From an uncultured Candidatus Bathyarchaeia archaeon (GTDB lineage: Archaea > Thermoproteota > Bathyarchaeia > Bathyarchaeales > Bathyarchaeaceae), in contig CAYGAE010000003.1 of the NCBI GenBank assembly GCA_964347855.1, forward strand, positions 1 through 39,147: DNA of 39,147 bases. Direction: 5' to 3'. The number at the start of each line of letters is the position of its first letter. Positions within the stretch are counted from its first letter, which is position 1. The notes beneath the pieces are model-generated. The model was not told where the DNA came from and did no database searches. It saw nothing but the letters and a program-made list of their open reading frames with translations. Both the position numbers and the translations under genes were made by a program. Below are positions 4,895 to 35,678 of the stretch, piece by piece.

Positions 4895-5321
4895 TGCTTG
4901 TTCCTCCAGCCCTTAGTGGGCTCGGTCCGAGTTTCTTTATTTCCTTCGTCATGTCCTTAATAATGGTTGCGAATCTCTCTCCTTCAGACGCCGAGACCCA
5001 CTCCAGTCGTAAACGCTCAGGTTTTAGACCTAAATGTTCCAAGACCTTCTTCAACATTAAAACTCTATGTTGTGCTTTGTAATTTCCAGAGAGGTAGTGA
5101 CAGTCGCCAGAGTGGCAGCCAGCGATGAGAACTCCGTCTGCTCCGCTTCGGAAGGCTTCGAGGATGAAAACTGGGTCAACTCTTCCGCTACACATCACCC
5201 TCACGATTCTAAGGGTTGGAGGATATTGGATTCGGCTAACACCTGCTAGGTCGGCACCGGCATAGGAGCACCAGTTGCAAAGGAAACCCACAATTTTTGG
5301 TTCAAATCCAGGTTTAGTCAT
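4887..5321 (-). CDS. mvhD: MvhD-type [2Fe-2S] adaptor protein (methyl-viologen-reducing hydrogenase delta subunit family), stand-alone
   Basis: 144 aa: FLCNWCSYAGADLAGVSRIQYPPTLRIVRVMCSGRVDP...GADGVLIAGCHSGDCHY. Overlaps the hdrA stop by 8 nt. Confidence 0.9.
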   Translation of the reverse strand: MTKPGFEPKIVGFLCNWCSYAGADLAGVSRIQYPPTLRIVRVMCSGRVDPVFILEAFRSGADGVLIAGCHSGDCHYLSGNYKAQHRVLMLKKVLEHLGLKPERLRLEWVSASEGERFATIIKDMTKEIKKLGPSPLRAGGTSNG

Positions 5322-18921: not shown

Positions 18922-21345
18922 ATGGAAAAGGCAAAAGTTGGAGTATTCCTGTCTGACTGCGGAGAACAGCTCTCTGAAATCCTGGACTTCAAAGCTCTAA
19001 CTGACTACGTGAAAACCGTTCCAGACGTAGTCCTTGTTGCGAGACGCAGTGAGTTTTGGCGGGGCCAAGGATTACAGGCAATTCTAGATGCTGTTAAAAG
19101 TGGAAAAATTAACAGAGTCGTTGTTGCGGAGAGCCTCCCGAAGCTAAGCGAGGTGAACATCGTTGAAGCCGTTGAAGAGGGAGGTCTTAATCCGTATTTG
19201 GTGGAAGTCATCGACCTGAAAGACCACTGCGCCTGGCCTCATCGGGAGACGCCTAAAGAAGCCACAGAAAAAGCCAAAGCCATGCTTCTAGCCGCCACCG
19301 AACGCGCCAGACTTCTCGAACCGATAGAGAAACTTGAGTTTCCAGCCCTCAAATCTGTCCTGGTCATTGGCGGAGGGATAGCGGGTATGCAGGCGGCTGT
19401 AGATTTGGCGGACTTGGGATTCGCCGTGAACCTGATTGAAAAGGAGCCGTTTCTCGGGGGCTTGGCTGCTCGCGCGGGGCGATTCTTCCCTACGGACGAT
19501 TGTGCCATCTGTATACAGTCTCCGGCTTCTGATGTGAAAACAATTACCCACACCTCAAGGAAGTGTGTGTACCGTTCCGGTTTCAGCGAGATTCCCAACC
19601 TAAACATACTGGCCAACTCAAGAGTCGTGGGTGTTGAAGGGGTTCCTGGAAACTATAAGGTCACAATAGAGAAGAAACCGAGATATGTTGACGAGCTGAA
19701 ATGTGTTGCGTGTGATTTATGCACCACCGTTTGCCCAGTGGAAGTACCTGACGAGTACAATGCGAAGCTGAAAACCCGCAAAGCCATCTACATGAACATT
19801 CCGAACGTTCATCCACCCGTTTACATCATCGACGAAAGCATCTGCAAATTCTACGACTGCGCCAAATGCGTGAATATCTGCCCGACCAAAGCCATAGAAT
19901 TAGATCAGAAAAGCGAGCAAATAACCCTAAACGTAGGCAGCATAATAATTGCCACAGGCTTCCAAGAGTGGGATTCCAGCATCATAAAGGAGTATCACTA
20001 CGATGACTACCAAGACGTGATAACCAACCTTGAACTCGCTAGGATGATCGACGGCTTCGGCCCCACGGGTGGCGTCATTATTAGACCTTCAGACCGCAAA
20101 CCTGCCAAGAAAATCGTCTTCATACAATGTGTGGGTTCAAGGGACAGACGATGGAATCCCTATTGCTCGAGCATCTGCTGCATGATTTCGCTAAAACATG
20201 CCTTATTAACGAAATCAGCCTATCCCGATACAGACATTACAGTATGTTACATTGATATAAGAACCACCGGAAGGCAGCACGAAGACTACTACGAACGAGC
20301 CAGAGAGTTGGGCGTAAAGTTCCTCAAAGGTAGACCAAGCGAAATCACACGGGACCCAGAGACTAATAAACTAATCGTAGACGTTGAAGACGAACTTCTG
20401 AAAAGAATCCTAGAATTAGACGCTGACCTAGTGGTGTTGGCTCCTGCCATGGTACCTTCTGAAGGAACCAAGGAACTTGCTCAGATTGGTTTTGAGCCTC
20501 TGTTGGATGAAGACGGCTTCTTCAAGGAGTACAACGCTAAACTGAGACCAACTGAAACCCGGCTTAGGGGGATATACATTTGCGGAGGAGCAACCTTCCC
20601 CAAGGATGCACCAACAACTTCCCTCCATGCACACTCGGCCGCTGTAAAGGCCGCCAAATTCATGACGACGGGCAAGATAGTCAAGGATCAGAGAACTGCC
20701 GTGATCAACGAAGAATTTTGTGGTGACTGCGAGTTCTGCCCGGTCACGTGTCCGTACGGTGCCATAACCCTGGTGCCAACCACTGAAAAGCACTTTGTGG
20801 CAGAAGTCTCGGATCTCATGTGCGAAGGATGCGGCATTTGTGTGGGTACTTGCCCTCTCAACGCCATCGAGCTCAGGCATTCGAGGCCCACCCAGATGCT
20901 GGCCCAGATGAAGGCACTCATGTCTGTAAATGGAACATCGAAGCCCTTGGTTCTGGCCATCTGTTGTTCAGAATGCGGTCACACCGCCATAGACTCTTCT
21001 GGCATGGCTATGATGCAGTATCCCGCCAACGTCAGAGTCATGAAAGTTCCTTGCACCGGAATTCTGCAAGTTCACCAACTCCTTGAGGCTTTCAAGGCGG
21101 GGGCTCAAGGAGTTATGGTTGTGGGATGCAAAAGCGACGGTTGCCACTACGAGATCGGTAGCCAGAAGGCTGAAAAGAAGGTGGAACTTGCCCGGATACT
21201 GCTGAAGGAATATGGTATAGCGCCAAAGAGGTTGGCGATGTTCAACATGGTTTTCATCGAAGGAGACAAATTTGCCGAGGCTGCACAAGCGATGACTGAG
21301 AGATTGGAAAAGTTGGGTCCACTGCAGTTTGCGGAAGGCCCCTAG
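18922..21345 (+). CDS. hdrA: HdrA-MvhD fusion protein (N-terminal domain depleted of cluster cysteines)
   Basis: 807 aa with the FAD fold (VIGGGIAGMQAAVDLADLG), GRFFPTDDC, inserted ferredoxin (CVACDLCTTVCP, CAKCVNICP), FIQCVGSRD, CSSICC, and C-terminal ferredoxin (CGDCEFCPVTCP, CEGCGICVGTCP). An MvhD domain follows (LAICCSECGH...VMKVPCTGIL...GAQGVMVVGCKSDGCHY). The N-terminus reads VGVFLSDCGEQL instead of VFVCHCGxNI. Confidence 0.9.
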   Translation: MEKAKVGVFLSDCGEQLSEILDFKALTDYVKTVPDVVLVARRSEFWRGQGLQAILDAVKSGKINRVVVAESLPKLSEVNIVEAVEEGGLNPYLVEVIDLKDHCAWPHRETPKEATEKAKAMLLAATERARLLEPIEKLEFPALKSVLVIGGGIAGMQAAVDLADLGFAVNLIEKEPFLGGLAARAGRFFPTDDCAICIQSPASDVKTITHTSRKCVYRSGFSEIPNLNILANSRVVGVEGVPGNYKVTIEKKPRYVDELKCVACDLCTTVCPVEVPDEYNAKLKTRKAIYMNIPNVHPPVYIIDESICKFYDCAKCVNICPTKAIELDQKSEQITLNVGSIIIATGFQEWDSSIIKEYHYDDYQDVITNLELARMIDGFGPTGGVIIRPSDRKPAKKIVFIQCVGSRDRRWNPYCSSICCMISLKHALLTKSAYPDTDITVCYIDIRTTGRQHEDYYERARELGVKFLKGRPSEITRDPETNKLIVDVEDELLKRILELDADLVVLAPAMVPSEGTKELAQIGFEPLLDEDGFFKEYNAKLRPTETRLRGIYICGGATFPKDAPTTSLHAHSAAVKAAKFMTTGKIVKDQRTAVINEEFCGDCEFCPVTCPYGAITLVPTTEKHFVAEVSDLMCEGCGICVGTCPLNAIELRHSRPTQMLAQMKALMSVNGTSKPLVLAICCSECGHTAIDSSGMAMMQYPANVRVMKVPCTGILQVHQLLEAFKAGAQGVMVVGCKSDGCHYEIGSQKAEKKVELARILLKEYGIAPKRLAMFNMVFIEGDKFAEAAQAMTERLEKLGPLQFAEGP

Positions 21346-21892: not shown

Positions 21893-22764
21893 CAAGATAC
21901 GCTCTATTCCTAGGCTGCACCATCCCAGCTCGTCAACCAAACTACGAGTTATCAGCAAGAAAAGCGCTATCTAAACTTGGAATCGAACTTGTTGATCTAC
22001 CAAACATGACATGCTGTTGCCCTCCACCCATTCAATCAATAGATTTGGAAACCAGCTTAGCAGTAGCTACATACAACATTTGCCTAGCTGAAGAAGCCAA
22101 CCTCGAGATAGTCACGCTATGCAGCGGCTGTTTCGAGTCCCTCGCTATGGCAAACAGCATGCTAAAAGACGACGAACAACTGAAAGCAAAGATCAACAGA
22201 ATCTTGTCCGCAGCGGGAAAAGAATTTGTGGGCAGCAAGGAAGTGAAACACTTCCTTCAAGTTTTGGTGGACGATGTAGGACTAGAACGCCTTAAAGCGA
22301 GCGTCACCAAGCCGCTCAGCAACCTAAAAGTAGCGCCGTTCTATGGTTGCCACGCCCTTAGACCGAGTGAGCTACTGAGACTCGACGATCCAGAGCGTCC
22401 AAACATTCTAGAGAACTTAATTGAAGCTCTAGGTGCATCAACTGTCGAGTATCGGAACAAACTGAAGTGCTGTGGAGGTCTTCTAAGAGGTTACTCTGAC
22501 GATCTTGCCCTTGAACTCGCCAGTGAAAAACTTGCAAACACAACAAAGGCTGGTGCCGACTGCATTGCAACCCTTTGTCCCTTCTGCTTCATTGCCCTGG
22601 ACATGGGACAACTGCAGATAAAACATAAGCTCAACAAAGTCTACGATATGCCGATAATCCACTACTCAGAGCTCTTAAGCCTAGCATTGGGAGTAGATCC
22701 GAAGGAGCTTGCCCTTGAAAGCCATAAGATAAAAGCCGATAAAGTACTCAGCAAGATACTCTAG
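21889..22764 (+). CDS. hdrB: Heterodisulfide reductase subunit B
   Basis: 291 aa with two CCG domains (NMTCCCPPP...LCSGC; KLKCCGGLL...LCPFC). ATGA overlap with hdrC. Colinear with the 3464-4339 paralog. Confidence 0.92.
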   Translation: MTRYALFLGCTIPARQPNYELSARKALSKLGIELVDLPNMTCCCPPPIQSIDLETSLAVATYNICLAEEANLEIVTLCSGCFESLAMANSMLKDDEQLKAKINRILSAAGKEFVGSKEVKHFLQVLVDDVGLERLKASVTKPLSNLKVAPFYGCHALRPSELLRLDDPERPNILENLIEALGASTVEYRNKLKCCGGLLRGYSDDLALELASEKLANTTKAGADCIATLCPFCFIALDMGQLQIKHKLNKVYDMPIIHYSELLSLALGVDPKELALESHKIKADKVLSKIL

Positions 22765-24196
22765 TAACTGAACGCTGCTTATCTTTACTCTTTTTCTTTC
22801 TCATAACATACCTGTGAATACTGCGTGCTGCCTTCTTTCCTGCCCCCATGGCGCTGATGACCGTCGCTGCTCCGCTGACCACATCTCCACCAGCATAGAC
22901 TCCCTTTTTGCTGGTTTTTCCAGTTCCATCATTAACGATTATAGTACCCCATCTGGTGGTCTTTAGTCCCTTGGTAGTTCGTTGGATGATTGGATTTGGA
23001 GTTTGTCCTATGGCTATCACCACGGTGTCCACATCCATGAGGAATTCGGAGCCTTCTATGGGAACTGGTCTTCTTCGCCCTGATTCGTCTGGTTCTCCAA
23101 GCCGCATCTTTATGCATTCCATTCCTTTCACCCAGCCGCGTTCATCGCCTAGAAATCTGACAGGAACGGTGAGAAACCTGAATCTTATTCCCTCCTCCTC
23201 TGCGTTTTCTATTTCTTCCAGTCTAGCAGGCATTTCCTTCCTAGACCTTCGATAAACAATCCATACCTCTGCTCCCAGCCTTAACGAACATCTCGCAGAG
23301 TCCATGGTAACGTTGCCGCCGCCTATCACTGCAACCTTCTTGCCTACTCTAATTGGGGTGTCGTATTCCGGAAACATGTAAGCTTTCATTAGGTTCACTC
23401 GGATCAGGAATTCGTTGGCTGAGTATATTCCACCAAGGTTCTCTCCGGGTATTCGCATGAAGCGGGGAAGCCCTGCCCCGGTACCGACGAAGACGGCGTC
23501 AAACCCGCGATCAATCAACTCATCTATTGTGTATAACCTTCCGATCATGTGGTCAGTTTTGAACTCAACGCCAAGCTTTTTGACGTAATCAACCTCGGCT
23601 TGCACTATTTTTTTGGGTAGCCTAAATTCTGGGATTCCGTACATAAGTACGCCGCCTGGGGCATGAAGCGCTTCGAATATGACAACCTCATGTCCAAGTC
23701 TTGCCAAATCTGCTGCTGCTGTGAGTCCAGCAGGTCCAGATCCCACAACCGCCACTTTTCCGCGCGTGGATGACCTTGATTTGGGCGGAATAGTGACTCC
23801 TCTCTGGAGTTCGTAGTCAGCGACAAACCTCTCTAACCTTCCAATAGCCATGGAGTCTCCCTTCTTGCCAAGTACACAAAACTTTTGACATTGGCTTTCT
23901 TGTGGACAAACTCGGCCACAAATTGATGGTAGGCTATTCTTTTCCTTTACAATTCTGATGGCTTCGCCGAAGTTTTTTTCTCTGATCGCTTTAATAAATG
24001 CGGGTATGTCTACTTCCACGGGGCAGCCTTGTATACACTGGGGTCTAGGACACTGTATGCACCTTTCAGCTTCTGCCACGGCTTGCTCCTCTGAGTAGCC
24101 CAGTGCCACTTCGTTGAAGTTGTGGATGCGTTCTTTTGGGTCTTGTTTGAGCATGGGAACTGTTTCTTTTCTGATTTTGGGTTTGGGCTTGCTCAT
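22748..24196 (-). CDS. nfnB: NfnB/SudA/GltD-family NADPH-dependent FAD/[4Fe-4S] oxidoreductase (large subunit)
   Basis: 482 aa: CIQCPRPQCIQGCPVEVDIPAFIKAIREKNFGEAIRIVKEKNSLPSICGRVCPQESQCQKFC, VAVVGSGPAGLTAAADLARLG, VAVIGGGNVTMDSA, GVYAGGD. The start overlaps the nfnA stop. Confidence 0.85.
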   Translation of the reverse strand: MSKPKPKIRKETVPMLKQDPKERIHNFNEVALGYSEEQAVAEAERCIQCPRPQCIQGCPVEVDIPAFIKAIREKNFGEAIRIVKEKNSLPSICGRVCPQESQCQKFCVLGKKGDSMAIGRLERFVADYELQRGVTIPPKSRSSTRGKVAVVGSGPAGLTAAADLARLGHEVVIFEALHAPGGVLMYGIPEFRLPKKIVQAEVDYVKKLGVEFKTDHMIGRLYTIDELIDRGFDAVFVGTGAGLPRFMRIPGENLGGIYSANEFLIRVNLMKAYMFPEYDTPIRVGKKVAVIGGGNVTMDSARCSLRLGAEVWIVYRRSRKEMPARLEEIENAEEEGIRFRFLTVPVRFLGDERGWVKGMECIKMRLGEPDESGRRRPVPIEGSEFLMDVDTVVIAIGQTPNPIIQRTTKGLKTTRWGTIIVNDGTGKTSKKGVYAGGDVVSGAATVISAMGAGKKAARSIHRYVMRKKKSKDKQRSVTRVSC

Positions 24197-25020
24197 AGGC
24201 TTCTTCCTCCCTTCTCATAAAATACGAATGCAAGCTTCTCTTCAGGAGAATACATTTTCAGCCGAGCCATCAACTCTTCAAAATCAACTTGATGCCCATC
24301 GAAGTCTGGGCCGTCAACGCAAGCGAACATTGTTTTGCCGCCGACGGTTACTCTGCATGCTCCACACATTCCCATCCCATCCACCATTAATGGAATCAGG
24401 GTCACAATTGTGGGTGTGTTGTATGGACGAGTGAGTTCTGAAACTGTTTTCATCATTACTATTGGGCCCATGGCTACTACGCGGTCGATCTTCTCTTCTT
24501 TGAACAGGTTTTCAATGAAGTCTAGTCCCTTGTGACCCTTTGTTCCGTCATCTGTGGCCACATAAAGCTCATCGCATGCCTCTCGCATTTCTTTTTCAAA
24601 AATTAGTTGGCTTTCCGTTCTAGCTCCTAGTACTCCTATGACCCTGTTGCCCACCTCGTGGAAGGCCTTGGCTTGGAAACGTAGAGGAGCCACCATCACT
24701 CCTCCACCAATGCAAAGCACGGTTCCAAACATCTCGATTTCAGCAGGTTTTCCCAGGGGGCCTAACAAGTCTAGGATGTGGTCTCCTTCTTCTAATTTTC
24801 CAAGCTTTTTAGTTGTTTTGCCAACTTCGTGGCAGACCACTGTTATCGTTCCTTTTTCAACGTCTGCATCAGCGGTAGTAAGTGGAATCCTTTCTCCATG
24901 TTCATCTATTCTCAAAATTACGAATTGTCCAGGTTTTGTTTTTGCGGCTACTTCCCTTGCTGAAAACTCGAATAGGTTAATGTGGGGAACCAGTTCCCGT
25001 TTCGTCACGATCCTATACAA
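24193..25020 (-). CDS. nfnA: NfnA/SudB (PyrK-like) FAD/[2Fe-2S] small subunit
   Basis: 275 aa: PGQFVILRIDEHGERIPLT (FAD-binding barrel), LCIGGGVMVAP, and C-terminal MVDGMGMCGACRVTVGGKTMFACVDGPDFDGHQVDF, as in characterised NfnA. It begins 1 nt after the upstream hdrA-mvhD stop. Confidence 0.85.
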   Translation of the reverse strand: MYRIVTKRELVPHINLFEFSAREVAAKTKPGQFVILRIDEHGERIPLTTADADVEKGTITVVCHEVGKTTKKLGKLEEGDHILDLLGPLGKPAEIEMFGTVLCIGGGVMVAPLRFQAKAFHEVGNRVIGVLGARTESQLIFEKEMREACDELYVATDDGTKGHKGLDFIENLFKEEKIDRVVAMGPIVMMKTVSELTRPYNTPTIVTLIPLMVDGMGMCGACRVTVGGKTMFACVDGPDFDGHQVDFEELMARLKMYSPEEKLAFVFYEKGGRSL

Positions 25021-25021
25021 C

Positions 25022-27160
25022 CTAGTCGCCTCTTTCCTTAACCCTTAAAGGATTTGGTCCAAGTTTCCTTATCTTTTCCACAAAATTCGTCATCATGGTC
25101 GCAAATTTCTGCCCTTCAGATGATGAAGCGAACTCTATTTCGAGGCGTTCCGGGTCTATGTGGAGGGTTTTCAGGGCCTTTTTCATTACGTCCACTCTGC
25201 TTTTTGCCTTCACGTTACCATCGATGTAATGGCAGTCGCCTATGAGGCATCCCGTTATGATAACTCCATCGGCACCATTCAGGAAAGCCTCCATGGCATG
25301 AAACACATCCACTCTTCCGCTGCATGGAACTCTTAGGATTCGAACATTCGGTGGATATTGGATCCTTGAGACCCCTGCGAGGTCAGCCGCCGCGTAAGAA
25401 CACCATTGACATGCAAAGCACAATACGATGGGTTCGAAGCTTTCGTTTGGACTCGTAAGCTTCTTCGGTTTTAGCAGCGCCTCAATTGCTGCCACAATCT
25501 GTTCATCCTTAAAGTGTATGAGTTGCATAGATCCCATTGGGCATTCTGCTGCGCACACACCGCAACCTTTACAGTTAGCTTCAATGATGTAGGGCTGTCC
25601 GAAGGGTGAAGCCGCAATAGCGTCAAAAATACATGAGACCACGCACGCATCGCAACCGACGCATATCTCCATGTCAACCGAAGCTTTTACAGCGTTAGTC
25701 TTTATTTTTCTGGCGGCCATTGGAATGCCTGCTCTGGAGGCTGCAGCATAAGCTTGAGCGATGCTTTCAGTGACGTCTTTTGGTCCGTGGGCAGTGCCGC
25801 AGACATATATCCCCTCTGATGCAAAGTCAACTGGTCTTAGTTTTGGATGAGCCTCCATAAAGAAGCCGTCGGAACCTACAGGAACCTTTAGTGTGGAAGA
25901 GAGTTTTCTCCCACCCTCGTGCTGAATCAGAGGTGTTGATAAGACGACCAAGTCGCTGTCCATCTCAATTTCAGCGTCTAAATACGCGTCGTAAACTGTG
26001 ACGGCTAACTTTCCATCAGCTTTTGAGGTTACTTGTGGAGGTTTGTCCTGCTCATAACGTATGAAGTTGATGAAGTTCTCCCTTGCTTCAAGATAAGAAT
26101 CTTCGTATTCAGCGTAAGTTTGCAGGTCTCTGAAAAGGATGCTGATTTCCACATTTGGATACAATTTTTTGAGTAGCATAGCATTGTTGAGGGCTACCAT
26201 GCAACATATTCTTGAACAGTATGTTCTGCCAGTTTTTTCTCTAGCTCCCACACATTGGATCATAACAACTCTTTTAGGTTTCTCGAGTTCGCCTTTTTTG
26301 AGAAGCTGCTCAAGTTCGAGCTGTGTTACAACGTTTTCATTTTCCTTGTACTCGTACATTCCCACCGGCTTGAACTCATTGGCTCCGGTGGCCACTATTA
26401 TTGTTCCTACATTAATTTGTTCAGGTTCATTGGAATCCTTCTTTTGAAGCATCACGTCAAAGCTTCCAATGAACCCTTTTGCTTCTTGAACGAGGGTTGA
26501 CAGGTGAAGATGTATGTTGCTGTTCGCCTTCACGGCTGTGACCAACTCTTGAAGAACTTCTGAAGCGTCACGTTCGGTGGGCTGCAGCTTGTGTAGATGT
26601 CTCAGCATTCCGCCTAGCTCTGCTTCTTTCTCAACCAGGTGAACATTGAAGCCTTGTCTTGCAATGGACATGGCCGCAGCCATTCCAGCGATTCCGCCGC
26701 CTATCACCATTGCTGAAGGTTTTATCTCGAGTTCTGGCTCTGTTTGAGGTTCAAGGTGGCTTGCTTTGGCGACAGCCATTCTAATGAGGTCTTTGGCTTT
26801 CTCTGTGGCCTCTTCTGGACGGTGCATGTGAACCCATGAGGAATGCTCTCGGATGTTTACCATTTCAAAAAGGTACTTGTTTAATCCTGCTTCTTCGCAT
26901 GCCTTTCTGAAGACCGGTTCATGGGTCGCGGGTGTGCAGGATGCACCCACGACCCGGTTGAGGTTACACTTCTTTATGCGTTCTTTGATCAGACTTAATC
27001 CTGCGGATGAGCACAAGTAAAGGTTTTCCTCGGCGCAGACAACATTAGGCAGAGTTTTGGCATACTCCACAACCTTTGGAACCTCAATCACTCCGCCTAT
27101 GTTGAAGCCGCAGTGACAGACGAAAACCCCAATCCTCAACTCTTCCTTGGCTGGTTCCAT
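25022..27160 (-). CDS. hdrA: HdrA-like (insert-less) flavoprotein fused to MvhD (QmoB-like architecture)
   Basis: 713 aa from ATG 27160: MEPAKEELRIGVFVCHCGFNIGG, VIGGGIAGMAAAMSIARQG, IQCVGAREK, CSRICC, C-terminal ferredoxin (CVGCDACVVSC, CKGCGVCAAECP), and an HFKDEQIVAAI tail. The MvhD domain follows (LCFACQWCSYAAADLAG...ILRVPCSGRVD...GCLIGDCHY). Colinear with residues ~448-1006 of the 1006-aa protein plus the stand-alone MvhD. Confidence 0.88.
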   Translation of the reverse strand: MEPAKEELRIGVFVCHCGFNIGGVIEVPKVVEYAKTLPNVVCAEENLYLCSSAGLSLIKERIKKCNLNRVVGASCTPATHEPVFRKACEEAGLNKYLFEMVNIREHSSWVHMHRPEEATEKAKDLIRMAVAKASHLEPQTEPELEIKPSAMVIGGGIAGMAAAMSIARQGFNVHLVEKEAELGGMLRHLHKLQPTERDASEVLQELVTAVKANSNIHLHLSTLVQEAKGFIGSFDVMLQKKDSNEPEQINVGTIIVATGANEFKPVGMYEYKENENVVTQLELEQLLKKGELEKPKRVVMIQCVGAREKTGRTYCSRICCMVALNNAMLLKKLYPNVEISILFRDLQTYAEYEDSYLEARENFINFIRYEQDKPPQVTSKADGKLAVTVYDAYLDAEIEMDSDLVVLSTPLIQHEGGRKLSSTLKVPVGSDGFFMEAHPKLRPVDFASEGIYVCGTAHGPKDVTESIAQAYAAASRAGIPMAARKIKTNAVKASVDMEICVGCDACVVSCIFDAIAASPFGQPYIIEANCKGCGVCAAECPMGSMQLIHFKDEQIVAAIEALLKPKKLTSPNESFEPIVLCFACQWCSYAAADLAGVSRIQYPPNVRILRVPCSGRVDVFHAMEAFLNGADGVIITGCLIGDCHYIDGNVKAKSRVDVMKKALKTLHIDPERLEIEFASSSEGQKFATMMTNFVEKIRKLGPNPLRVKERGD

Positions 27161-27164
27161 TTGG

Positions 27165-28478
27165 CTATCCCCACACAAGGGTAGAACAGGCCACCTCTGC
27201 AGCTTTGGCTGCGGCCGCACTGGCTTGCGTAACGGATTCAGAAATATCCTTGGGCGCTTGACAATATCCACAAACAAAGACTCCTTCCACTTTTGTCTCA
27301 ACAGACATAAGCAATGGGTCTTTGGTTTTGAAGAAACCATATTCATTCAATTCTAAACCAAGAATTTTTCCCAAAACCTCATTGTCATCTCTCGGAACTA
27401 GAGCCGGACAAAGCACAACCAAATCTGCACGCAATTCTTCCATTTTCCCTTTTGTGATATCTTCGTATCGAACAAAAAGATCCTTTGTCGCTGGATCTTC
27501 TATGACTGCAGAGACGCGTCCATTAACGTATTTGACACCCCATTGGTCTCTGGCTCTAGTGACGAACTCTTGGAACCGTTTCCCAAACACTCTTAAATCA
27601 ATATACAAAATGTAAACTTCACATTGAGGTTCGTGCTCTCGGACTAAGATCGCCTCTTTTGTGGCGTACATGCAACAGACGCTGGAGCAGTATGGGAACC
27701 CCTTCTGTTGAGTTCTTGAGCCAACGCATTGGGCAAAAACTATCTTGCGAGGATGTTTATTATCTGAAGGCCTCAAAAGTTCTCCACGAGTCGGCCCAGA
27801 AGCGTTAATGAGCCTTTCAAATTCCAGCGATAAAAGAACATTCTTGTATCGTTTATAACCGTACTCACTTATCGACATCGGATCGTAAAGTTCTAAGCCT
27901 GTAGCCAATATTATACTTGAAACACTAAACGTCATTCTCTTGGGTTTTTGATCGAAGTTGATTGCGTGGGCCTGACAAAATTTTTCGCACACTCGACATA
28001 CTCCTTTCTGAAAGAAGAGGCAATTGTCCTTGTCTATTATGGCTATACGGGGCACTGCCTGTGGAAAAGGCATGTAGACGGCTTTCCGCATTCCCACGCC
28101 CATATCGAATTCGCTTGGCACCTTAACTGGGCATTTTTCTGAGCACGCACCGCAACCAGTACATTTGTCAGCGTCAATAAACCTTGGGTTTTTCAAAACC
28201 TCAACCTTGAAGTTTCCAGCAGAGCCCCTAACTTCCTTAACTTCTGAGCATGTGAGCAGCTTGATGTTTGGGTGACGGAAGCACTCAATCATTTTTGGCG
28301 CGAGTATGCATATAGAACAATCCATTGTTGGGAATGTCTTATCAAGCTGAGCCATTCGCCCCCCGATGCCTGGGGATTTCTCGACGAGATATACTTTGAG
28401 CCCTCTGTCAGCGAGGTCCAAAGACGCTTGTATTCCAGCTATGCCTCCGCCAACTACAAGTACAGCATTGTTGCCCAA
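27165..28478 (-). CDS. hdrA: HdrA-like FAD + inserted-ferredoxin module only (QmoA-like size)
   Basis: 437 aa: VVGGGIAGIQASLDLADRG, QLDKTFPTMDC, CTGCGACSEKCP, CLFFQKGVCRVCEKFC, FAQCVGSR, CSSVCC. Colinear with residues 1-~430 of the 1006-aa protein. Its stop is 4 nt before the next ATG. Confidence 0.88.
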   Translation of the reverse strand: MGNNAVLVVGGGIAGIQASLDLADRGLKVYLVEKSPGIGGRMAQLDKTFPTMDCSICILAPKMIECFRHPNIKLLTCSEVKEVRGSAGNFKVEVLKNPRFIDADKCTGCGACSEKCPVKVPSEFDMGVGMRKAVYMPFPQAVPRIAIIDKDNCLFFQKGVCRVCEKFCQAHAINFDQKPKRMTFSVSSIILATGLELYDPMSISEYGYKRYKNVLLSLEFERLINASGPTRGELLRPSDNKHPRKIVFAQCVGSRTQQKGFPYCSSVCCMYATKEAILVREHEPQCEVYILYIDLRVFGKRFQEFVTRARDQWGVKYVNGRVSAVIEDPATKDLFVRYEDITKGKMEELRADLVVLCPALVPRDDNEVLGKILGLELNEYGFFKTKDPLLMSVETKVEGVFVCGYCQAPKDISESVTQASAAAAKAAEVACSTLVWG

Positions 28479-28627
28479 GTCGATTCCTCAAATGTTTGCA
28501 TACATGCTGGCGCAAATCAGTTCCCATGTGGATAGGAGACCCGTGTCTCATCTCCTTTGAAGGAGAGTAGTTCACTTCCTAACTTGAAACTTAAACCTTT
28601 CTCTCAACCCTTCACAAACGTAGGGAA

Positions 28628-29572
28628 TCATGCTTTGTAGTAGTATGGCCTTTTAATGTAGCCGAACGCTTCACTAGCCGCAATTATGGCCTGGCCAACA
28701 GCCGTTCCAACTTGCTTCACAGGACCGTTAGTTACATCGCCAGCAGCGAAAACTCCGCCAACGCTTGTTCTCTGGCGGTTATCCACGATAATGTAGCCAG
28801 CCTTATCCACTTCTATTCCCGCTTCTTTGGCGATCTGGCTGTTTGGCGCCTCACTGATTTGAACGAATACACCGTCAACCTTCATCTCTCTGGTTTCGCC
28901 TGTTCTGTTGTTTACTAAGACGACGCCTTTTACTTTGGTGTCTCCCTTTACTTCTTTGAGCTCTGTGTTCCACATAATTTCCACCCCTTGTGCAACCAGG
29001 TCCTTCACAAGGGCCTCTTCTGCCCTGAGTTGGTCCTTCCGGTGAGCCAGCTTGACCTTGGAAGCTATATTTGCGAGGTATCTAGCAGAAATTACTGCCG
29101 AATTGCCACCGCCCACCACTAGTACGTTTCCTTCTTTGAAGAAGGCTCCGTCGCATAATGCGCAGTAACTGACTCCCTTTCCTCGAAATTCGGTCTCACC
29201 TGGCACTTCAAGAGTTCCATAGTGGCTTCCGGAGGCAATGATTACTGCTGAGGCTTTGCGAACTGCTCTATTCGTCTTAAGAGTTTTCTTTTCACCTCTA
29301 AGATCCAGTTCAACAACCTTTTCTAATTCATGAATCGTCGCCCCAGCGTTTCTACATTGTTTCGCCATTTTGTCAGCTAAGTTATGGCCACTAATTGCTT
29401 CAAAGCCGGGGTAATTTTCGACCAACGGAGTGTCAACGATTGCCCCACCAACCACTTTCTCGTCCAGAACTAGGGTTTTGAGTCCACTGCGAGCACCGTA
29501 CAAGCCTGCGGTTAAACCTGCTGGACCTGCGCCTATAACGACCAAATCCCACTGTTCCACTTTTGTCACCAT
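28628..29572 (-). CDS. Thioredoxin-reductase-like (low-Mr TrxB family) flavoprotein
   Basis: 314 aa: DLVVIGAGPAGLTAGLYGARSG, redox CxxC (SYCALCDGAFF), VVGGGNSAV, HRKDQLRA (NADPH-type motif), GVFAAGDV. Confidence 0.85.
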   Translation of the reverse strand: MVTKVEQWDLVVIGAGPAGLTAGLYGARSGLKTLVLDEKVVGGAIVDTPLVENYPGFEAISGHNLADKMAKQCRNAGATIHELEKVVELDLRGEKKTLKTNRAVRKASAVIIASGSHYGTLEVPGETEFRGKGVSYCALCDGAFFKEGNVLVVGGGNSAVISARYLANIASKVKLAHRKDQLRAEEALVKDLVAQGVEIMWNTELKEVKGDTKVKGVVLVNNRTGETREMKVDGVFVQISEAPNSQIAKEAGIEVDKAGYIIVDNRQRTSVGGVFAAGDVTNGPVKQVGTAVGQAIIAASEAFGYIKRPYYYKA

Positions 29573-29596
29573 ACCGCACGAAAATTCTAGTAACGA

Positions 29597-31978
29597 TTAA
29601 TCTTCCACTTCCGCTTTCTGTTGAAGCTTTTCTTTGATGCTTTCTCGAATATCCCTTGAGATAGCGCCCATTCTTGAAATTCTTTCGTTGAACATTTCGA
29701 ACGTGTTGGTCACTTTGCCGTATTCGGGAAGCGTCGTAGAGAAGGACATTAGTCGGAGGGGTTTGACGCCATACGCCCCCAGCTCCTTCTTCATCTGGAT
29801 AACATGTTCCCTCAAGGCTTCCTCCGTGAAGACACCACCATGGGCCTCCAGTAGAACAACGCCATCAGCCCCAGAGGCGAAGGCATGCAACACATGTTTC
29901 AAACCGATTCGTCCTGTCGTGGGGACGCTGACTATTTCGACGTTGGGAGAATAAGATACTCGCGACTGCCCAGCCAAATCCGCAGCGCCGTAGGCTATCT
30001 CCTTTTCTAGGAAGGCGATGATCTTTGGTGATTTGCCGCCTTGGCTCACTGCTTCAATTTGAGCCATCAACTGGGCTTCGGTTGAATTCCGTAGGTCAAT
30101 CGCTTCTCTGGGACACCTTGGCACACAGATGCCACATCCAATACACACCATCGGGTTGATCGTCATACCAGTCGGCGATTCCTCCACCGCTGCCACGGGG
30201 CACACTTCAACGCAGACCCTGGACTTGTCACATCTATCTGGATCGATGTAAGCCACTTCTGGCGAAACGGAGATTTCGCCTTTACCAAGGAAGGTGGCGA
30301 CTCTGGAAGCGGTTGACATGGCTTCCAAGGTCGTTTCTCTGACATCTTTGGGACTCAAGGCGCAGCCAGCAACGAAAACCCCCTCTCGCTGACTATCCAC
30401 CGGCTTGAGTTTGTAATGCCTTTCCAAAAGAAAACCGTCCGAACCAGTCTGAATACCCAACTTCTTAGCCAGTTCTGGAGTGTCTGGTTTGGATATTATT
30501 CCAGTAGTGAGCACAACCAGGTCAAATTTTCCTTCCACTTTAGTACCGAGAAGAGTGTCTTCTGCCTTCACCAGTATTTCATCGTTTTTCAATGGCACAA
30601 CCTCCGCCACGCGGCCCCTGACAAATCGCACGTTGTGATCTTGGGCGGTGAGATAGAATTCTTCGTACCCTTTTCCATCAGCCCTTATATCGGTGTAGAA
30701 GATCCATGGCTCGGCGTCAGGAACGATCTTTTGGAGTAACATAGCCTGCTTAATCGCAGCCATACAGCCTATCTTACAGCAATGCTTTACTCCTGGTTCC
30801 TTGTTCATCATTCGGCTGCCCACGCAGAGTATGAAGGCTACTCGCTTAGCCACTTTTTCATTAGAGGGCTTGCGCATCTCACGACCTAAGAGTCTCTCCA
30901 ATTGCAGGTTCGTTACAATGTCTGGGTGTAGACCGAAGGCATACTCTTCAAAGGATGTGGGGTCAACTTGCTCAAATCCAGTGCAAGCAACGATTGCGCC
31001 CACGTCGAGCTCAATAGTTTCTTCCTTCTGATCGAAATCAATGGCGTTACCTTTACAGAATTTCTCGCAAACCCTGCAAACTCCCTTAGTGAAGAATAAG
31101 CAGTTGTCTTTATCGATCAGGTATGTTCTCGGAACTGCCTGCTGAAAGGGTATGTGAATGGCTTTTCGCTTGTATAAGCTAGCTTCGAATTCGCTTGGCA
31201 CCTTGGCAGGGCAAACCTTCTCACACTCGCCACAGCTTATACATTTTGAGGCGTCCACAAATCGTGGGTGCTGCTTAACTAAGACTCTATAGTTGCCAGG
31301 AGACCCCTCGACGGCAACGGGCTCTGCCATGCTAATGATCTTTATGTGTGGGTGTTGACCAGCATCCACCATTCTCGGCGTCAGGATGCACTGGGAGCAG
31401 TCAAGGGTGGGAAAGGTTTTACTAAGCTGGGCCATATGTCCGCCTATGCTTGGACCCTTCTCCACTAAGTATACCAGATGACCTTTGTCCGCCAACTCAA
31501 GGGAAGCCATGATACCGGAGACCCCGCCCCCAATCACAAGGACATCCCTATTCACTGGTAGGCTCTTCGTCTCCAGCGGCTCGAGATAGTGAGCCCGAGC
31601 CACCATGCCGCGAATAAGATCTGTTGCCTTGGATGTTGCAGCCTCTACGTCGTCGTGCGCCCAGCTGACCTGTTCTCTGATGTTGGCCATGTCTAGAAAG
31701 TAGGGGTTCAAGCCGGCCGATTTCACAGTTCGCCTGAAGGTGTCTAGGTGCATGCGGGGTGAACATGAAGCCACTATTATTCTGTTAAGACCATGCTCCT
31801 TGATTCCATGGGTTATCATCTCTTGTCCCGGGTCGCTGCACACGTATTCGTAGGTTTCAGCAATCTTCACTCCTTGGAGTTTCATGACTTCTTCTTTGAC
31901 TTTCTCTACGTCCACGGTGTCGCTTATGTTTCCCCCGCAGTGGCAGATGTATACGCCTATCTTGATTTCTTCTGACAT
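29597..31978 (-). CDS. hdrA: HdrA-like flavoprotein with a C-terminal MvhD-homologous domain that lacks all cluster cysteines
   Basis: MSEEIKIGVYICHCGGNISD, VIGGGVSGIMASLELADKG, QLSKTFPTLDC, CISCGECEKVCP, CLFFTKGVCRVCEKFC, ILCVGSR, C-terminal ferredoxin (CDKSRVCVEVCP, CIGCGICVPRCP). The tail then reads IIAFLEKEIAYGAADLAGQSRVSYSPNVEIVSVPTTGRIG...GADGVVLLEAHGGVF. Start chosen at ATG 31978 (GGAGA upstream); the ORF track extends to 32038. Confidence 0.85.
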   Translation of the reverse strand: MSEEIKIGVYICHCGGNISDTVDVEKVKEEVMKLQGVKIAETYEYVCSDPGQEMITHGIKEHGLNRIIVASCSPRMHLDTFRRTVKSAGLNPYFLDMANIREQVSWAHDDVEAATSKATDLIRGMVARAHYLEPLETKSLPVNRDVLVIGGGVSGIMASLELADKGHLVYLVEKGPSIGGHMAQLSKTFPTLDCSQCILTPRMVDAGQHPHIKIISMAEPVAVEGSPGNYRVLVKQHPRFVDASKCISCGECEKVCPAKVPSEFEASLYKRKAIHIPFQQAVPRTYLIDKDNCLFFTKGVCRVCEKFCKGNAIDFDQKEETIELDVGAIVACTGFEQVDPTSFEEYAFGLHPDIVTNLQLERLLGREMRKPSNEKVAKRVAFILCVGSRMMNKEPGVKHCCKIGCMAAIKQAMLLQKIVPDAEPWIFYTDIRADGKGYEEFYLTAQDHNVRFVRGRVAEVVPLKNDEILVKAEDTLLGTKVEGKFDLVVLTTGIISKPDTPELAKKLGIQTGSDGFLLERHYKLKPVDSQREGVFVAGCALSPKDVRETTLEAMSTASRVATFLGKGEISVSPEVAYIDPDRCDKSRVCVEVCPVAAVEESPTGMTINPMVCIGCGICVPRCPREAIDLRNSTEAQLMAQIEAVSQGGKSPKIIAFLEKEIAYGAADLAGQSRVSYSPNVEIVSVPTTGRIGLKHVLHAFASGADGVVLLEAHGGVFTEEALREHVIQMKKELGAYGVKPLRLMSFSTTLPEYGKVTNTFEMFNERISRMGAISRDIRESIKEKLQQKAEVED

Positions 31979-32201
31979 CTTTATGTCTCCGGTTGTGATG
32001 GTCTCGAAGTGGCTTTTAGAATTAAGCATAATCACCATTTAAACTCTTAAACATCTCGCTTAAAACCTCTAGATGTCAAAGCAGACAATCTTGACCAAGT
32101 AGAATCGTTCTCTCATGTCTTACTTTTAGCACAAGAGCCAAAAGCGCGCAGATTCTCCCAGGCTTTGGTTTTTTCACTTTATTGGCAATCTCTTGATAAG
32201 G

Positions 32202-32281: not shown

Positions 32282-33220
32282 ATGCCCATGAAACTGCTCA
32301 AAACACAAAACGAGGACGAACTGAGGATTGAAAGGATTCTCCATGCAAAAAGGCACTCCTTGACTTTGGACAAGAATAGGTGCCCGGGCTGTGAAATCTG
32401 CATGCTAATCTGTCCAAAAGAAGCAATCGAAGTAGAAAAACTGCGGAAAAAAGATGGAGAAAAAAGTAAGCCCCCAAGCATGAACGTCGATGAGGAAAAG
32501 TGCCATTTTTGTGGTATGTGCAGTTCCATTTGCCCCTTCGGAGCTTTAGACATGAAGATTGACGGTGAAACCGTGATTCCCGTGGTTCAGAGTGAGAGCT
32601 TTCCTCAGCTTATCCGCGAGATTACAGTCAACTCAACAAAGTGTAACCTAGAATGCGTTGATTACGAAGACGCATGCCCCTTGGGACTGATAAAGGTCAG
32701 GGCGCAGATTCCGGACGCGAAAGTAGTCAAAAACGCAGAGTCAATCGCAGAAAAGGAAGACCTCCAAGTTTCTCTCGATATAGAGAAGGATTCGTGCCCG
32801 TGCTGTCGCGTATGCGAACTGAAGTTCCCAGAAGGAGCCATCCGAGTGCAAAAGATATTCAACGGCACAATAACGATAAACCCTGAAAAATGTCCCGAGG
32901 ACTGTCAGGATTGCCTTGACGTCTGCCCCATAACCGGCGCCCTATACCTCTCAGAAGACGGAAAGGTCCACGTTAACGAGTTACATTGCGTCTATTGCGG
33001 GGTATGCAAAATCGTTTGCCCCGAGGAAGGTGCCTTGAAGCTTCACAGAACTCACATACGCCACACTCCCCTCCGCTCAGGAGCCTGGAACAAAGCTCTC
33101 GAAAAACTAACCTCACCCAAGGAGATGACAAAAGAATTACGAACAAAGAGTTCACAAAGGCTTCGGGAATCTGTGGCAAAGAGGCTGCTGCCAAAGGCAG
33201 GAGGTGAAGGGGATGCCTGA
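32282..33220 (+). CDS. Polyferredoxin-like protein (up to six [4Fe-4S] motifs)
   Basis: CPGCEICMLICP, CHFCGMCSSICP, CNLECVDYEDACP, CPCCRVCELKFP, CPEDCQDCLDVCP, CVYCGVCKIVCP. GGAGG lies 10 nt upstream of ATG 32282. The stop overlaps the next hdrA start by 8 nt. Confidence 0.85.
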   Translation: MPMKLLKTQNEDELRIERILHAKRHSLTLDKNRCPGCEICMLICPKEAIEVEKLRKKDGEKSKPPSMNVDEEKCHFCGMCSSICPFGALDMKIDGETVIPVVQSESFPQLIREITVNSTKCNLECVDYEDACPLGLIKVRAQIPDAKVVKNAESIAEKEDLQVSLDIEKDSCPCCRVCELKFPEGAIRVQKIFNGTITINPEKCPEDCQDCLDVCPITGALYLSEDGKVHVNELHCVYCGVCKIVCPEEGALKLHRTHIRHTPLRSGAWNKALEKLTSPKEMTKELRTKSSQRLRESVAKRLLPKAGGEGDA

Positions 33221-35678
33221 AGACCCACGCATAGGAGTTTTCATTTGCCATTGCGGTCTCAACATCGCAGGCGTGATCGACATAGATGACCTTGAAAAAT
33301 ACGCCAAAACGTTGCCCAACGTGGTTTACACTAAACAGAACCGCTACACGTGCGCCGATCCTGGACAAGAAGAAATCAGGAAGGCGGTAAAGGAGCACAA
33401 TCTGAACCGCGTGGTTGTCGCAGCCTGTTCACCACGGTTGCATGAACCCACCTTTCGCAGAACCGTCTCCGAAGCGGGATTAAACCCGTTTTACTATGAG
33501 ATGGCCAACATAAGGGAGTTCTCGTCATGGTGTCACCCAAGCATGCCGGAGGGTGCAACAGAAAAGGCGAAGGACATCGTAAAGATGGCTGTCGCCAAGG
33601 CAAGACTGCTCCAAAGTCTCGAAACCCTCGAAGTTCCGGTGACGAATAAGGCTCTAATCCTAGGCGGCGGAATCGCTGGAATAAGTGCTGCCCTGGACCT
33701 CGCTGGCATGGGTTTCAAGGTGTATCTTGTTGAGAAGGGGGAAAGCATTGGCGGTCACATGGCACAGCTGGACAAGACCTTTCCCACGCTAGACTGTTCC
33801 ATATGTATCGAAGGACCAAAAATGGTAGACGTCTCCCGCCACCCCAACATCGAAATAATATCATACGCCGACATCTTAAGCGTAAACGGTTTCGTGGGCA
33901 ACTTCAAAGTCAAGATACGAAAAAACCCTAGATACGTCATAGCCGACAACTGCACCGGCTGTGGCGAATGCCGCGACGTCTGCCCCATAGAGTTCCCCAA
34001 CGAATGGGACATAAACATGGGCGTGAGGAAGGCAATCTCGATCCCCTTCGATCAAGCAGTTCCCCTTGTCTACACAATCAATATGGACTATTGTATAGAA
34101 TGCTACAAGTGCGTAGACGCTTGTGGCGCCCGCCAAGCCATCAACTTCGACCAAAAGCCAGACGAAATCGAACTTGAAGTTGGCACTATCATAGTGTCAA
34201 CCGGATTTGACATCTATACACCCTACGACGACAGCCGATACGGCTACGGCAGATACGACAACGTCATCACAGCGCTAGAATTCGAAAGGCTAATCTTAGC
34301 GGCCGGTCCAACCGGTGGAAAGGTTGTGCGTGCCTCTGACGGGAAGAAGCCACACACCGTAGTCTTCATCCAGTGCGTAGGCTCCAGAGACGTCAACAAA
34401 TACGAGTACTGTTCAGGCTTCTGCTGCATGTACTCACTGAAGAACGCGATATTACTCAAGGAGAAATACCGTGAAGACGTCGAAGTCTACATTCTCTACA
34501 TCGACATGAGAACCCACTTCAAAGGCTACGAAGAATTCTACAGAAGAGCCCGCGAGCTAGGAATCAACTTCATCCGGGGAAAGGCATCCAAGATTCTAGA
34601 AAACCAGACGACAAAGAATCTAATCATACGCGCAGAAGACATGGCCCTTGGGGAACCAATCGAACTAGAAGCAGACCTCGTGGTCCTAAGCACAGCAGCC
34701 ATTCCAAACAAAGACTCAGGTGACATGGCGAGAGTCCTAAATATCACGCGAGGGTCAGACGGCTTCTTTATGGAGAGCCACCCAAAGCTCAAACCCGTCG
34801 ACACCCCAGTAGACGGAATCTTCCTGGCAGGAGCCTGCCAAGGACCCAAAGACATCCCGTACAGCGTCTCCCAAGGAAGCGGAGCCGCCGCCAGAGCAGC
34901 AACCATCCTCTCTCAACCAACTTGGAAGATCGAACCCATCATCGCAGTAGTGAACCCAGATAGATGCCGAAATATAAACGCCAAATGCGGCATTTGCGCG
35001 CAGAGGTGCCCATACGGAGCCATAGAAGCCCCTGAAGGACATCCAGCTCATGTCACAACCGCTATGTGCCATGGTTGCGGAACTTGTGTCGCCGAATGCC
35101 CCGCCGACGCCATCACTCAGATGCACTTCACGGACGCCCAAATTACGGCGCAGATTCAATCCGCTTTAGAAGAAAATCCTGAGGACAAGATCCTCGCTTT
35201 CCTATGCAACTGGTGTAGTTATGCTGGCGCCGACCTTGCAGGTACGAGTCGTTTTGAGTATCCACCAACAATACGGGCAATACGAGTGATGTGCTCAGGA
35301 CGTGTGGATCGAGATTTCGTTATGGAAGGTTTTAGACGGGGAGCTGGCATGGTTCTAGTGGCTGCTTGCCACCTGCCCTACGACTGCCACTACATCTCCG
35401 GCAACGTGAGAATGAAAGCGAGGATGGAAGCGCTAGCAAAGATGTTGGAAAAACTGGGGCTAAGCTCCGAAAGGTTTAGAATAGAATATATATCGGCGGC
35501 GGAAGGAGTAAAATTCGCCGAATTGATCAGGGAAATGACTGAACAAATGGAGACCCTTGGAAAAGAAAAGATCAAAGCAGAAAACACGAAACTGGGACCG
35601 ACACTCGAAAAGATGCTCTCAAGAAAAAAGGATACAACAAGGGCTCTTAAAACCCCGAAGGCCCTTATACAACACTAA
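33213..35678 (+). CDS. hdrA: HdrA-MvhD fusion protein (full complement of canonical motifs)
   Basis: DPRIGVFICHCGLNIAG, ILGGGIAGISAALDLAGMG, QLDKTFPTLDC, CTGCGECRDVCP, CIECYKCVDAC, FIQCVGSRD, CSGFCC, CGICAQRCP, CHGCGTCVAECP, and an HFTDAQITAQI tail. The MvhD domain follows (FLCNWCSYAGADLAG...VMCSGRVD...ACHLPYDCHY). GGAGGTG lies upstream of ATG 33213. Confidence 0.9.
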   Translation: MPEDPRIGVFICHCGLNIAGVIDIDDLEKYAKTLPNVVYTKQNRYTCADPGQEEIRKAVKEHNLNRVVVAACSPRLHEPTFRRTVSEAGLNPFYYEMANIREFSSWCHPSMPEGATEKAKDIVKMAVAKARLLQSLETLEVPVTNKALILGGGIAGISAALDLAGMGFKVYLVEKGESIGGHMAQLDKTFPTLDCSICIEGPKMVDVSRHPNIEIISYADILSVNGFVGNFKVKIRKNPRYVIADNCTGCGECRDVCPIEFPNEWDINMGVRKAISIPFDQAVPLVYTINMDYCIECYKCVDACGARQAINFDQKPDEIELEVGTIIVSTGFDIYTPYDDSRYGYGRYDNVITALEFERLILAAGPTGGKVVRASDGKKPHTVVFIQCVGSRDVNKYEYCSGFCCMYSLKNAILLKEKYREDVEVYILYIDMRTHFKGYEEFYRRARELGINFIRGKASKILENQTTKNLIIRAEDMALGEPIELEADLVVLSTAAIPNKDSGDMARVLNITRGSDGFFMESHPKLKPVDTPVDGIFLAGACQGPKDIPYSVSQGSGAAARAATILSQPTWKIEPIIAVVNPDRCRNINAKCGICAQRCPYGAIEAPEGHPAHVTTAMCHGCGTCVAECPADAITQMHFTDAQITAQIQSALEENPEDKILAFLCNWCSYAGADLAGTSRFEYPPTIRAIRVMCSGRVDRDFVMEGFRRGAGMVLVAACHLPYDCHYISGNVRMKARMEALAKMLEKLGLSSERFRIEYISAAEGVKFAELIREMTEQMETLGKEKIKAENTKLGPTLEKMLSRKKDTTRALKTPKALIQH

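Follow-up and report, generated by a model that had tools for sequence, protein, structure and literature searches.

Can an HdrA protein whose fused MvhD domain has lost its cluster cysteines still act as an electron-bifurcating module, and if so, with which proteins would it exchange electrons? This question is raised by a 39,147-nucleotide (nt) stretch of DNA from an uncultured Candidatus Bathyarchaeia archaeon (GenBank assembly GCA_964347855.1, contig CAYGAE010000003.1, positions 1 to 39,147; the whole stretch is called the window below), which contains such an hdrA gene followed by a trxB-like gene for a thioredoxin reductase (TrxR) and, further along, by nfnA and nfnB. To our knowledge, the [2Fe-2S] cluster of MvhD is the electron gate to HdrA's bifurcating flavin in all Hdr complexes that have been solved. 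By computing homology, fold, cysteine absence, clade structure and gene-order statistics, we find that the cysteine loss is an ancient trait of a Bathyarchaeia-wide HdrA group, not local decay, and that a link to NfnAB, absent from an earlier note on this DNA, is a stronger signal than the pairing of HdrA with TrxR which that note had proposed. The explanation that best accounts for the whole, and that we hold to be on balance probable, is one in which the MvhD fold persists as a structural element without a cluster, an NfnAB-type enzyme is the NADP(H) partner, and TrxR is a co-located consumer of NADPH.

The hdrA open reading frame (ORF) extends over 29597..32038 on the minus strand (813 codons), and translation probably starts at the ATG at 31978, with a GGAG 9 nt upstream. 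The features of this gene that bear on the cysteine question are as follows, with MvhD cysteine columns numbered by a solved MvhD (PDB 5ODC chain D).

29597..31978, minus strand: hdrA, HdrA2-type (type Ia) with a fused MvhD-like domain; 793 residues from the likely start
29666..30022, minus strand: MvhD-fold domain without cluster cysteines; residues 673-791 of the 813-residue ORF
29990..30013, minus strand: FLEKEIAY (residues 676-683), in place of F(L/C)CNWC(S/T)Y, which holds MvhD C13 and C16; from alignments
29909..29926, minus strand: VPTTGR (residues 705-710), in place of V(M/P)CSGR, which holds MvhD C42; from alignments
29828..29872, minus strand: GADGVVLLEAHGGVF (residues 723-737), in place of GADGV..GCHxGDCHY, with C67 substituted and C72 deleted; from alignments
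31388..31402, minus strand: DCSQC, the CxxC pair kept in the flavin domain of HdrA, equivalent to M. marburgensis HdrA Cys202/Cys205 in the alignment to 8RVU chain a

The tail of this protein is homologous to MvhD. Residues 673-791 match the Pfam FlpD/MvhD model (PF02662) over its entire length (1-123/123, E 9e-24, 84 bits); the window's other five MvhD domains, located at 4887..5321, 8331..9104, 18922..21345, 25022..27346 and 33204..35678, score 128-197 bits on the same model. A profile made from the tail and 27 relatives finds six MvhD chains of known structure (E 1e-16 to 1e-18). In addition, an AlphaFold2 model of residues 652-813 has a mean predicted local distance difference test score of 87.7, and the best four PDB matches of the modeled tail in Foldseek are all MvhD chains (5ODH_D, 5ODC_D, 8RVU_F and 7BKB_F; template modeling score 0.77-0.85, root mean square deviation 2.3-2.6 Å).

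In a joint alignment, the columns C13/C16/C42/C67/C72, which are cysteine in essentially all canonical domains, read E/I/T/A/gap in the target. The motifs quoted in the earlier note, from both HdrA and TrxR, were all found, and its statement that every cysteine of the window's five other MvhD domains is substituted holds to the extent that none of the five conserved cysteines is left in the target; the reference set, however, is not uniform, since four columns are cysteine in 5/5 of those domains and the fifth in 4/5, with Ser at the C16 position in the domain at 8331..9104 (minus strand), a free-standing MvhD fused to an ArsR-type helix-turn-helix domain. No compensating cysteine was found by sequence within the target domain, no extra cysteine is conserved across the clade, and none occurs in the target HdrA sequence beyond the C-terminal ferredoxin motif. 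Because no cysteine follows that motif, an iron-sulfur (Fe-S) cluster in the tail domain is excluded by sequence. Judged by its residues, then, the tail is an MvhD homolog but not a functional member of the family, and a [2Fe-2S] cluster is predicted to be unable to bind to it.

Across 28 diverse members that are 54-83% identical, 26 columns of the domain are invariant, and the domain is therefore under purifying selection. This strong constraint and the confident MvhD-like fold together make a structural or docking role reasonable. The earlier description of the domain as a purely structural docking module fits the cluster loss, the constraint and the predicted fold; the structural role itself is what we infer from them, and persistence of the MvhD fold as a structural module is a reasonable conclusion.

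The rest of the protein has the full-length type Ia architecture, as judged by its Pfam domains and by its alignment to a solved HdrA (8RVU chain a), which runs end to end over residues 22-664 (637 bits). In this alignment, the N-terminal cysteines, the DCSQC pair and both ferredoxin domains are retained, as are the equivalents of the bifurcating-flavin residues Lys409 and Glu356 (the K in GCMAAIK and the E in LQLER). HdrA2 is the best NCBIfam model, with a score (855.3 bits) below its cut-off of 1100; the window copy at 33204..35678 scores 1093 bits on this model. The N-terminal and inserted-ferredoxin cysteine motifs are complete in the target, and two other motifs are altered. The [4Fe-4S] cysteine motif of the flavin domain (30761-30784, minus strand) reads HCCKIGCM in the target and in the other cysteine-less HdrAs of its clade (clade 1, below), with one ligand position shifted, and YCSxxCCM in the window's remaining HdrA copies and in clade 2. 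The first motif of the C-terminal ferredoxin (30197-30232, minus strand) is CDKSRVCVEVCP, in which Ser replaces the second cysteine, a change that the target has in common with L174, L016 and about 5/121 homologs, the other relatives having CxxCxxCxxxCP. The encoded protein is a complete bifurcating flavoprotein of the HdrA2 type, with activity predicted from these sequence features, and the flavin-domain CxxC pair is present in every cysteine-less clade member checked.

The same loss is found well beyond this gene. A search with the tail returned >100 clusters (90% identity) of ~790-residue proteins with the same cysteine-less motifs, the named ones being labeled Bathyarchaeia. In a set of 80 loci taken from GTDB genomes, all five cysteines are missing from 55 Bathyarchaeia-type domains, and the canonical domains all keep them; one Thermoplasmata, one Nitrososphaerota and one Promethearchaeota label occur in this set, and the C13 column is Glu or Asp in 51/55 of the cysteine-less sequences. 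Matches to the cysteine-less domain at E<=1e-30, a threshold that the canonical MvhD domains of the target's own genome fall short of, are present in 76/201 sampled Bathyarchaeia genomes. In a maximum-likelihood tree of the HdrA body minus its MvhD part, all 65 cysteine-less proteins form one clade (100/99), which divides into clade 1 (100/98), including the target, and clade 2/3; the window HdrA at 18922..21345 retains its MvhD cysteines in the alignment. A single loss of the cysteines is the parsimonious, if not proven, reading of this tree of HdrA sequences.

A 50%-identity representative library searched with the domain profile yielded 14 representatives at E<=1e-30, mostly fragments and without taxonomy. 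Weaker-scoring cysteine-less MvhD-like variants in the same library (P0144-P0169) have the motifs FFDDNIS, FLDDKIS and FFGDETA; to judge from these motifs, the phenomenon may extend past the clades studied here.

Clues to the partners of the cysteine-less HdrA come from the genes that follow it. The order in the window is cysteine-less hdrA, trxB, hdrA-core, hdrA with a canonical MvhD domain, nfnA and nfnB, with these features.

29573..29596, minus strand: hdrA-trxB spacer, exactly the 24 nt given in the earlier note, without a TATA-like box
28628..29572, minus strand: trxB-like gene for a low-molecular-mass NADPH-type TrxR paralog, 314 residues; from motifs and model scores
29153-29164, minus strand: CALC (residues 137-140), the redox-active CxxC of TrxR
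29096-29113, minus strand: GGGNSA, an NADPH motif of TrxR
29021-29044, minus strand: HRKDQLRA (residues 177-184), an NADPH motif of TrxR with one Arg changed to Lys relative to HRRxxxR
28562..28605, minus strand: conserved element of non-coding DNA that directly follows trxB and includes a TTTAAG box (28590-28595)
27165..28478, minus strand: HdrA core protein of 437 residues, without the N-terminal domain and without a C-terminal ferredoxin or MvhD domain
25022..27160, minus strand: HdrA without the inserted ferredoxin domain and with a canonical cysteine-containing MvhD domain; from domain matches and alignments
24193..25020, minus strand: nfnA, small subunit; similar to the small subunit of P. 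furiosus NfnI (5JCA_S, 313 bits) and to 4YLF_A (255 bits)
22748..24196, minus strand: nfnB, large GltD-type subunit; similar over its full length to T. maritima NfnB (4YLF_B, 608 bits) and to 5JCA_L (589 bits)

By the similarity of both subunits, over their full length, to solved NfnAB, the window nfnA and nfnB are a genuine NfnAB pair. In the same way, the trxB-like gene is that of a normal low-molecular-mass NADPH-type TrxR with predicted activity. It matches a solved TrxR (7AAW) over its full length (244 bits), and it shares with this and other enzymes of the TIGR01292 family (5MH4, 4GCM, 4ZN0) the flavin adenine dinucleotide motif (GAGPAG), the CxxC, GGGxSA and an HRRDxxRA-like motif; the intact CALC and the NADPH-type HRKDQLRA that the earlier note had reported are indeed present. 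Unlike those enzymes, it belongs to a Bathyarchaeia-specific paralog family that is syntenic with nfnAB, whose members keep CxxCD, GGGN[ST]A and HRR[DES]xxRA, and it narrowly misses the equivalog cut-off of TIGR01292 (334.8 versus 343.45 bits). The genome holds four TrxR paralogs, the others being on contigs C32, C11 and C13. The C11 copy (C11:9075-10013) has a CxxC without the NADPH motifs and resembles ferredoxin- or deazaflavin-dependent types, and the C13 copy (C13:925-1884) lacks the CxxC and has the look of a ferredoxin-NADP reductase of the TrxR type.

Gene order was compared in the target subclade, defined as a 100/99 group in the HdrA-core tree plus close homologs, which provides eight informative loci. 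The order hdrA then trxB occurs in 6/8 (the window, L119, L124, L088/L089, L174 and L175), and nfnAB follows in all six. Counting L087, nfnAB is downstream of hdrA in 7/8. This locus, the closest relative, with the same rpoA-nusA-hdrA2-polyferredoxin context, reads hdrCB, hdrA, nfnAB, hdrCB and has no trxB; L176 has neither trxB nor nfnAB, and L016 is masked downstream of hdrA. At L175 (metagenome-assembled genome BA2, GCA_001399795.1), trxB comes after hdrA with a 1-kb HepT/MNT insert between them, a nucleotidyltransferase/HepT-like toxin-antitoxin-type gene on the opposite strand (8318-9148). L119 (G077:C32) carries, between trxB and the hdrA-core gene, a TrxR-fold gene of the C13 type without CxxC and an 87-residue hdrA-core fragment.

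Outside this subclade the neighbors differ. In the rest of clade 1, hdrC-hdrB mostly adjoins the cysteine-less hdrA directly, and a paralog on contig C57 of the target's own genome, 59% identical to the target HdrA, has hdrCB next to it; this genome encodes seven hdrB and eight hdrC-like paralogs. Three other clade-1 cysteine-less HdrAs (P0050, P0096 and L161) have an NfnB-like domain inserted at about residue 290 that is 44-45% identical to the window NfnB. Clade-2 loci have a divergent hdrD-like gene, which in ~12/21 loci with enough flank is followed by trxB, a 402-residue (ferredoxin-MvhD)x2 adaptor gene, nfnA and nfnB. When trxB orthologs are followed in their own right, nfnAB lies just downstream in 22 of 40 genomes (16 of them via the adaptor), and a cysteine-less HdrA is adjacent in 4/40. 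The pairing of HdrA with TrxR that the earlier note had suggested does recur in the target subclade, but nfnAB follows each time, L087 lacks trxB, and trxB mostly accompanies nfnAB. The further idea of an HdrA-TrxR unit that dispenses with HdrBC is not borne out as a conserved arrangement, as most HdrA orthologs and the C57 paralog adjoin hdrCB.

The adaptor is found in 41/201 genomes, about half of the time without an adjacent trxB; the trxB-less loci that were fetched read adaptor-nfnAB-hdrCB (L178, L179) or have the adaptor alone (L184). Four others (L180-L183, from G096, G006, G070 and G012) have the order mvhG-mvhA-adaptor-nfnA, with nfnB directly next in L181, which suggests that a hydrogenase is wired to NfnAB through the adaptor. 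A 720-residue open frame in G184 that appeared to fuse TrxR to (ferredoxin-MvhD)2 was rejected, the two parts being bridged by masked bases read as X.

The spacers of these loci, read directly and aligned, suggest how the genes are transcribed. The hdrA-trxB spacer has no TATA-like box here (24 nt), in L174 (5 nt) or in L088 (80 nt). The spacer after trxB is 125-149 nt long (also L174 5961-6090, L175 10308-10432 and L088 10426-10556) and begins with a ~45-nt TTTAAG element that is near-invariant in four loci, though the next gene differs; clade-2-type loci have an ATTATAT box at the equivalent position. An Rfam scan of the spacers and trxB gave no match. The ~45-nt element is probably an archaeal promoter of the downstream unit, so that hdrA and trxB would form one transcription unit and the nfnAB-containing genes probably a second with its own promoter.

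In the explanation that we favor, the relay from hydrogenase via the MvhD cluster to the flavin has been lost, and electrons would reach or leave the HdrA flavin by another route. In most of the lineage, the encoded partner would be HdrC/HdrB or an HdrD-like fusion; in the target subclade, genuine NfnAB, an NADPH/NADH/ferredoxin enzyme, would be an additional partner, with HdrBC used where it is encoded; and in some relatives the partner would be an NfnB domain built into HdrA itself. NfnAB would act as the hub, to which the cysteine-less HdrA (by synteny and in-frame fusions) and TrxR (by synteny) appear to be linked independently, each also occurring without the other. TrxR would consume NADPH for thiol reduction beside nfnAB, the likely NADPH source, and would neither stand in for HdrBC nor be an obligatory part of HdrA, while probably being co-transcribed with hdrA. 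We infer this partnership and flow of NADPH from gene order and from the NfnB-inserted HdrAs, which indicate the same connection to NADP(H), encoded in the window by separate nfnAB genes. We liken the arrangement to FlxABCD-HdrABC of Desulfovibrio, in which an NAD(P)H-oxidizing flavoprotein module presumably takes the place of the hydrogenase as HdrA partner. Flx uses an intact MvhD homolog (FlxD) and different subunits, whereas the window has a genuine NfnAB, and the MvhD fold of its HdrA is without a cluster.

Several other readings give TrxR a closer relation to HdrA. The earlier note had suggested that HdrA, paired with the TrxR-like flavoprotein, could act on a disulfide without HdrBC, and a version in which this flavoprotein replaces HdrBC as a physical subunit and disulfide-reducing output of an HdrA (plus Nfn) complex could draw on the short hdrA-trxB gaps without a promoter-like box, on the recurring order hdrA-trxB-(MvhD-bearing proteins)-nfnAB, on the position of trxB between the hdrD-like gene and the ferredoxin-MvhD adaptor in clade-2 loci, and on known complexes in which MvhD adaptors feed a TrxR-fold flavin domain (PMC13580544). 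However, this TrxR is of normal length, with the full set of NADPH motifs and without an extra docking or Fe-S domain; 36/40 trxB orthologs have no cysteine-less HdrA nearby; most HdrA orthologs have hdrCB and no trxB; L087 proceeds from hdrA to nfnAB without trxB; and the sole apparent fusion of TrxR to an adaptor is the masked-base artifact in G184. We regard this model as distinctly unlikely, and a physical complex of HdrA and TrxR as possible but less likely than co-location. A narrower proposal, that TrxR, with or without thioredoxin, trades two electrons with the HdrA CxxC pair by thiol-disulfide exchange and so replaces the lost [2Fe-2S]/Cys16 entry path, would make use of a pair that all checked cysteine-less members keep, and in the target subclade hdrA appears to be transcribed together with trxB. 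In recent structures, the CxxC pair is located between MvhD's cluster and the flavin, and the step is likened to ferredoxin-dependent thioredoxin reductases (PMC13580544; bioRxiv 10.64898/2026.04.10.717634). Yet this support is purely circumstantial, and the pair is also kept in cysteine-less HdrAs without trxB nearby, so we give the exchange little credence. The broader idea that the hdrA-trxB and MvhD-adaptor/nfnAB units are one NADPH-linked bifurcating system, with TrxR talking to the HdrA flavin through the CxxC as a two-electron donor or as an output that replaces HdrBC, we consider unlikely.

The remaining alternatives do without a role for TrxR. It could be that the adjacency is meaningless, HdrA belonging to an ordinary HdrABC whose hdrBC genes lie elsewhere and trxB having arrived through rearrangement of a redox island: the genome has the many hdrB and hdrC-like paralogs noted above, and in close relatives the hdrA-nfnAB interval is either empty or holds trxB, trxB with the adaptor, trxB with two hdrA-like genes, a toxin-antitoxin insert or an insert of 6.8 kb. 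Against this, the same neighbors recur across genera and samples, two different cysteine-less HdrA clades adjoin the trxB-nfnAB block, and members of the cysteine-less clade carry the in-frame NfnB insertion, and we think chance adjacency quite improbable. Still further from what we expect is that the domain binds another ligand or metal by way of its conserved acidic residue in the C13 column and the EDHGG His, and has a sensing or regulatory function; the acidic C13 column is nearly universal among the cysteine-less sequences, and His68/Asp71 of MvhD contact an unknown ligand in the Mvh-Hdr structure (PMC13580544), but many members of the clade have EGDDS, without that His, and this reading seems very improbable.

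It is also necessary to set out what weighs against the explanation that we favor, a structural MvhD fold with NfnAB as NADP(H) partner and TrxR as a co-located NADPH consumer. Two hdrB/hdrC pairs lie inside the window, none of them transcribed in the same direction as the cysteine-less hdrA. The HdrA-core tree included four cysteine-containing outgroup sequences only. The cluster has no thioredoxin gene, the only WCGPC thioredoxin of the assembled genome being on contig C4, and since the copy on C32 (C32:5175-6605) is a canonical NADPH-dependent thioredoxin reductase (CATCD, GGGDTA, HRRDKLRA), it is a puzzle why a second NADPH-type TrxR is kept. The tight spacing of hdrA and trxB (5-80 nt) in five subclade loci would also fit a physical pair, and trxB and nfnAB, seemingly in separate units, show conserved synteny but are not a proven operon.

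Known systems resemble parts of this locus. HdrA2 of Methanosarcina acetivorans (HdrA2B2C2, type Ia; PMC5296606, PMC12054007) has the same N-terminal Fe-S domain, TrxR-fold flavin domain, inserted and C-terminal ferredoxin domains and fused MvhD fold, and like it the orthologs of the target are usually encoded with hdrCB. The target differs in lacking all five MvhD cysteines, in having HCCKIGCM instead of YCSxxCCM, in its Bathyarchaeon host, and in the nearby trxB and nfnAB. The MvhD/VhuD adaptor of MvhAGD-HdrABC (PDB 5ODC, 7BKB, 8RVU, 9SFI) shares the fold and the scaffold motifs AxDxxG, GR and GADG, but the target domain has no cluster ligands, has STTLPEY for SASEG, and is fused to HdrA rather than being a free subunit. 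The proteins P0050, P0096 and L161, which are 68-74% identical over the flanking HdrA segments and fall in the same cysteine-less clade, correspond to type III HdrA/HdrA-NfnB fusions (ANME-1 HdrA9-11; PMC9012536, PMC12054007), with the NfnB/GltD domain inside the inserted ferredoxin domain; in the window, by contrast, the NfnAB subunits are separate genes, with trxB and two partial hdrA genes in between. These three proteins may belong to the published Bathyarchaeota class 'A10'. Among the papers that could be searched, none gives a description of a cysteine-less MvhD domain, of an HdrA-TrxR or TrxR-NfnAB operon, or of trxB-nfnAB synteny.

The presence of an MvhD fold without a cluster in a large conserved lineage suggests that the wiring of HdrA-type bifurcation modules can vary, with NADP(H) as the likeliest connection, via NfnAB or an inserted NfnB, and this bears on the role of 'Hdr' enzymes in abundant non-methanogenic sediment archaea. 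It also advises caution, as not every FlpD/MvhD match is an iron-sulfur subunit, and it provides a natural test case for the step by which the cluster of MvhD, the cysteine pair of HdrA and the flavin are connected.

Two further observations were made. A second hdrA-core/hdrA-MvhD/nfnA block, 80-83% identical to that of the window, lies at the end of another contig of the same assembly (C73:4267-8354) without trxB upstream, and is either a paralog or a second strain in the bin (6% contamination). In addition, the window encodes the largest subunit of RNA polymerase (36418-39147, minus strand) with Rpb1 domains 2 to 5 in one frame and A'/A'' unsplit; the corresponding product at L087 has 1271 residues.

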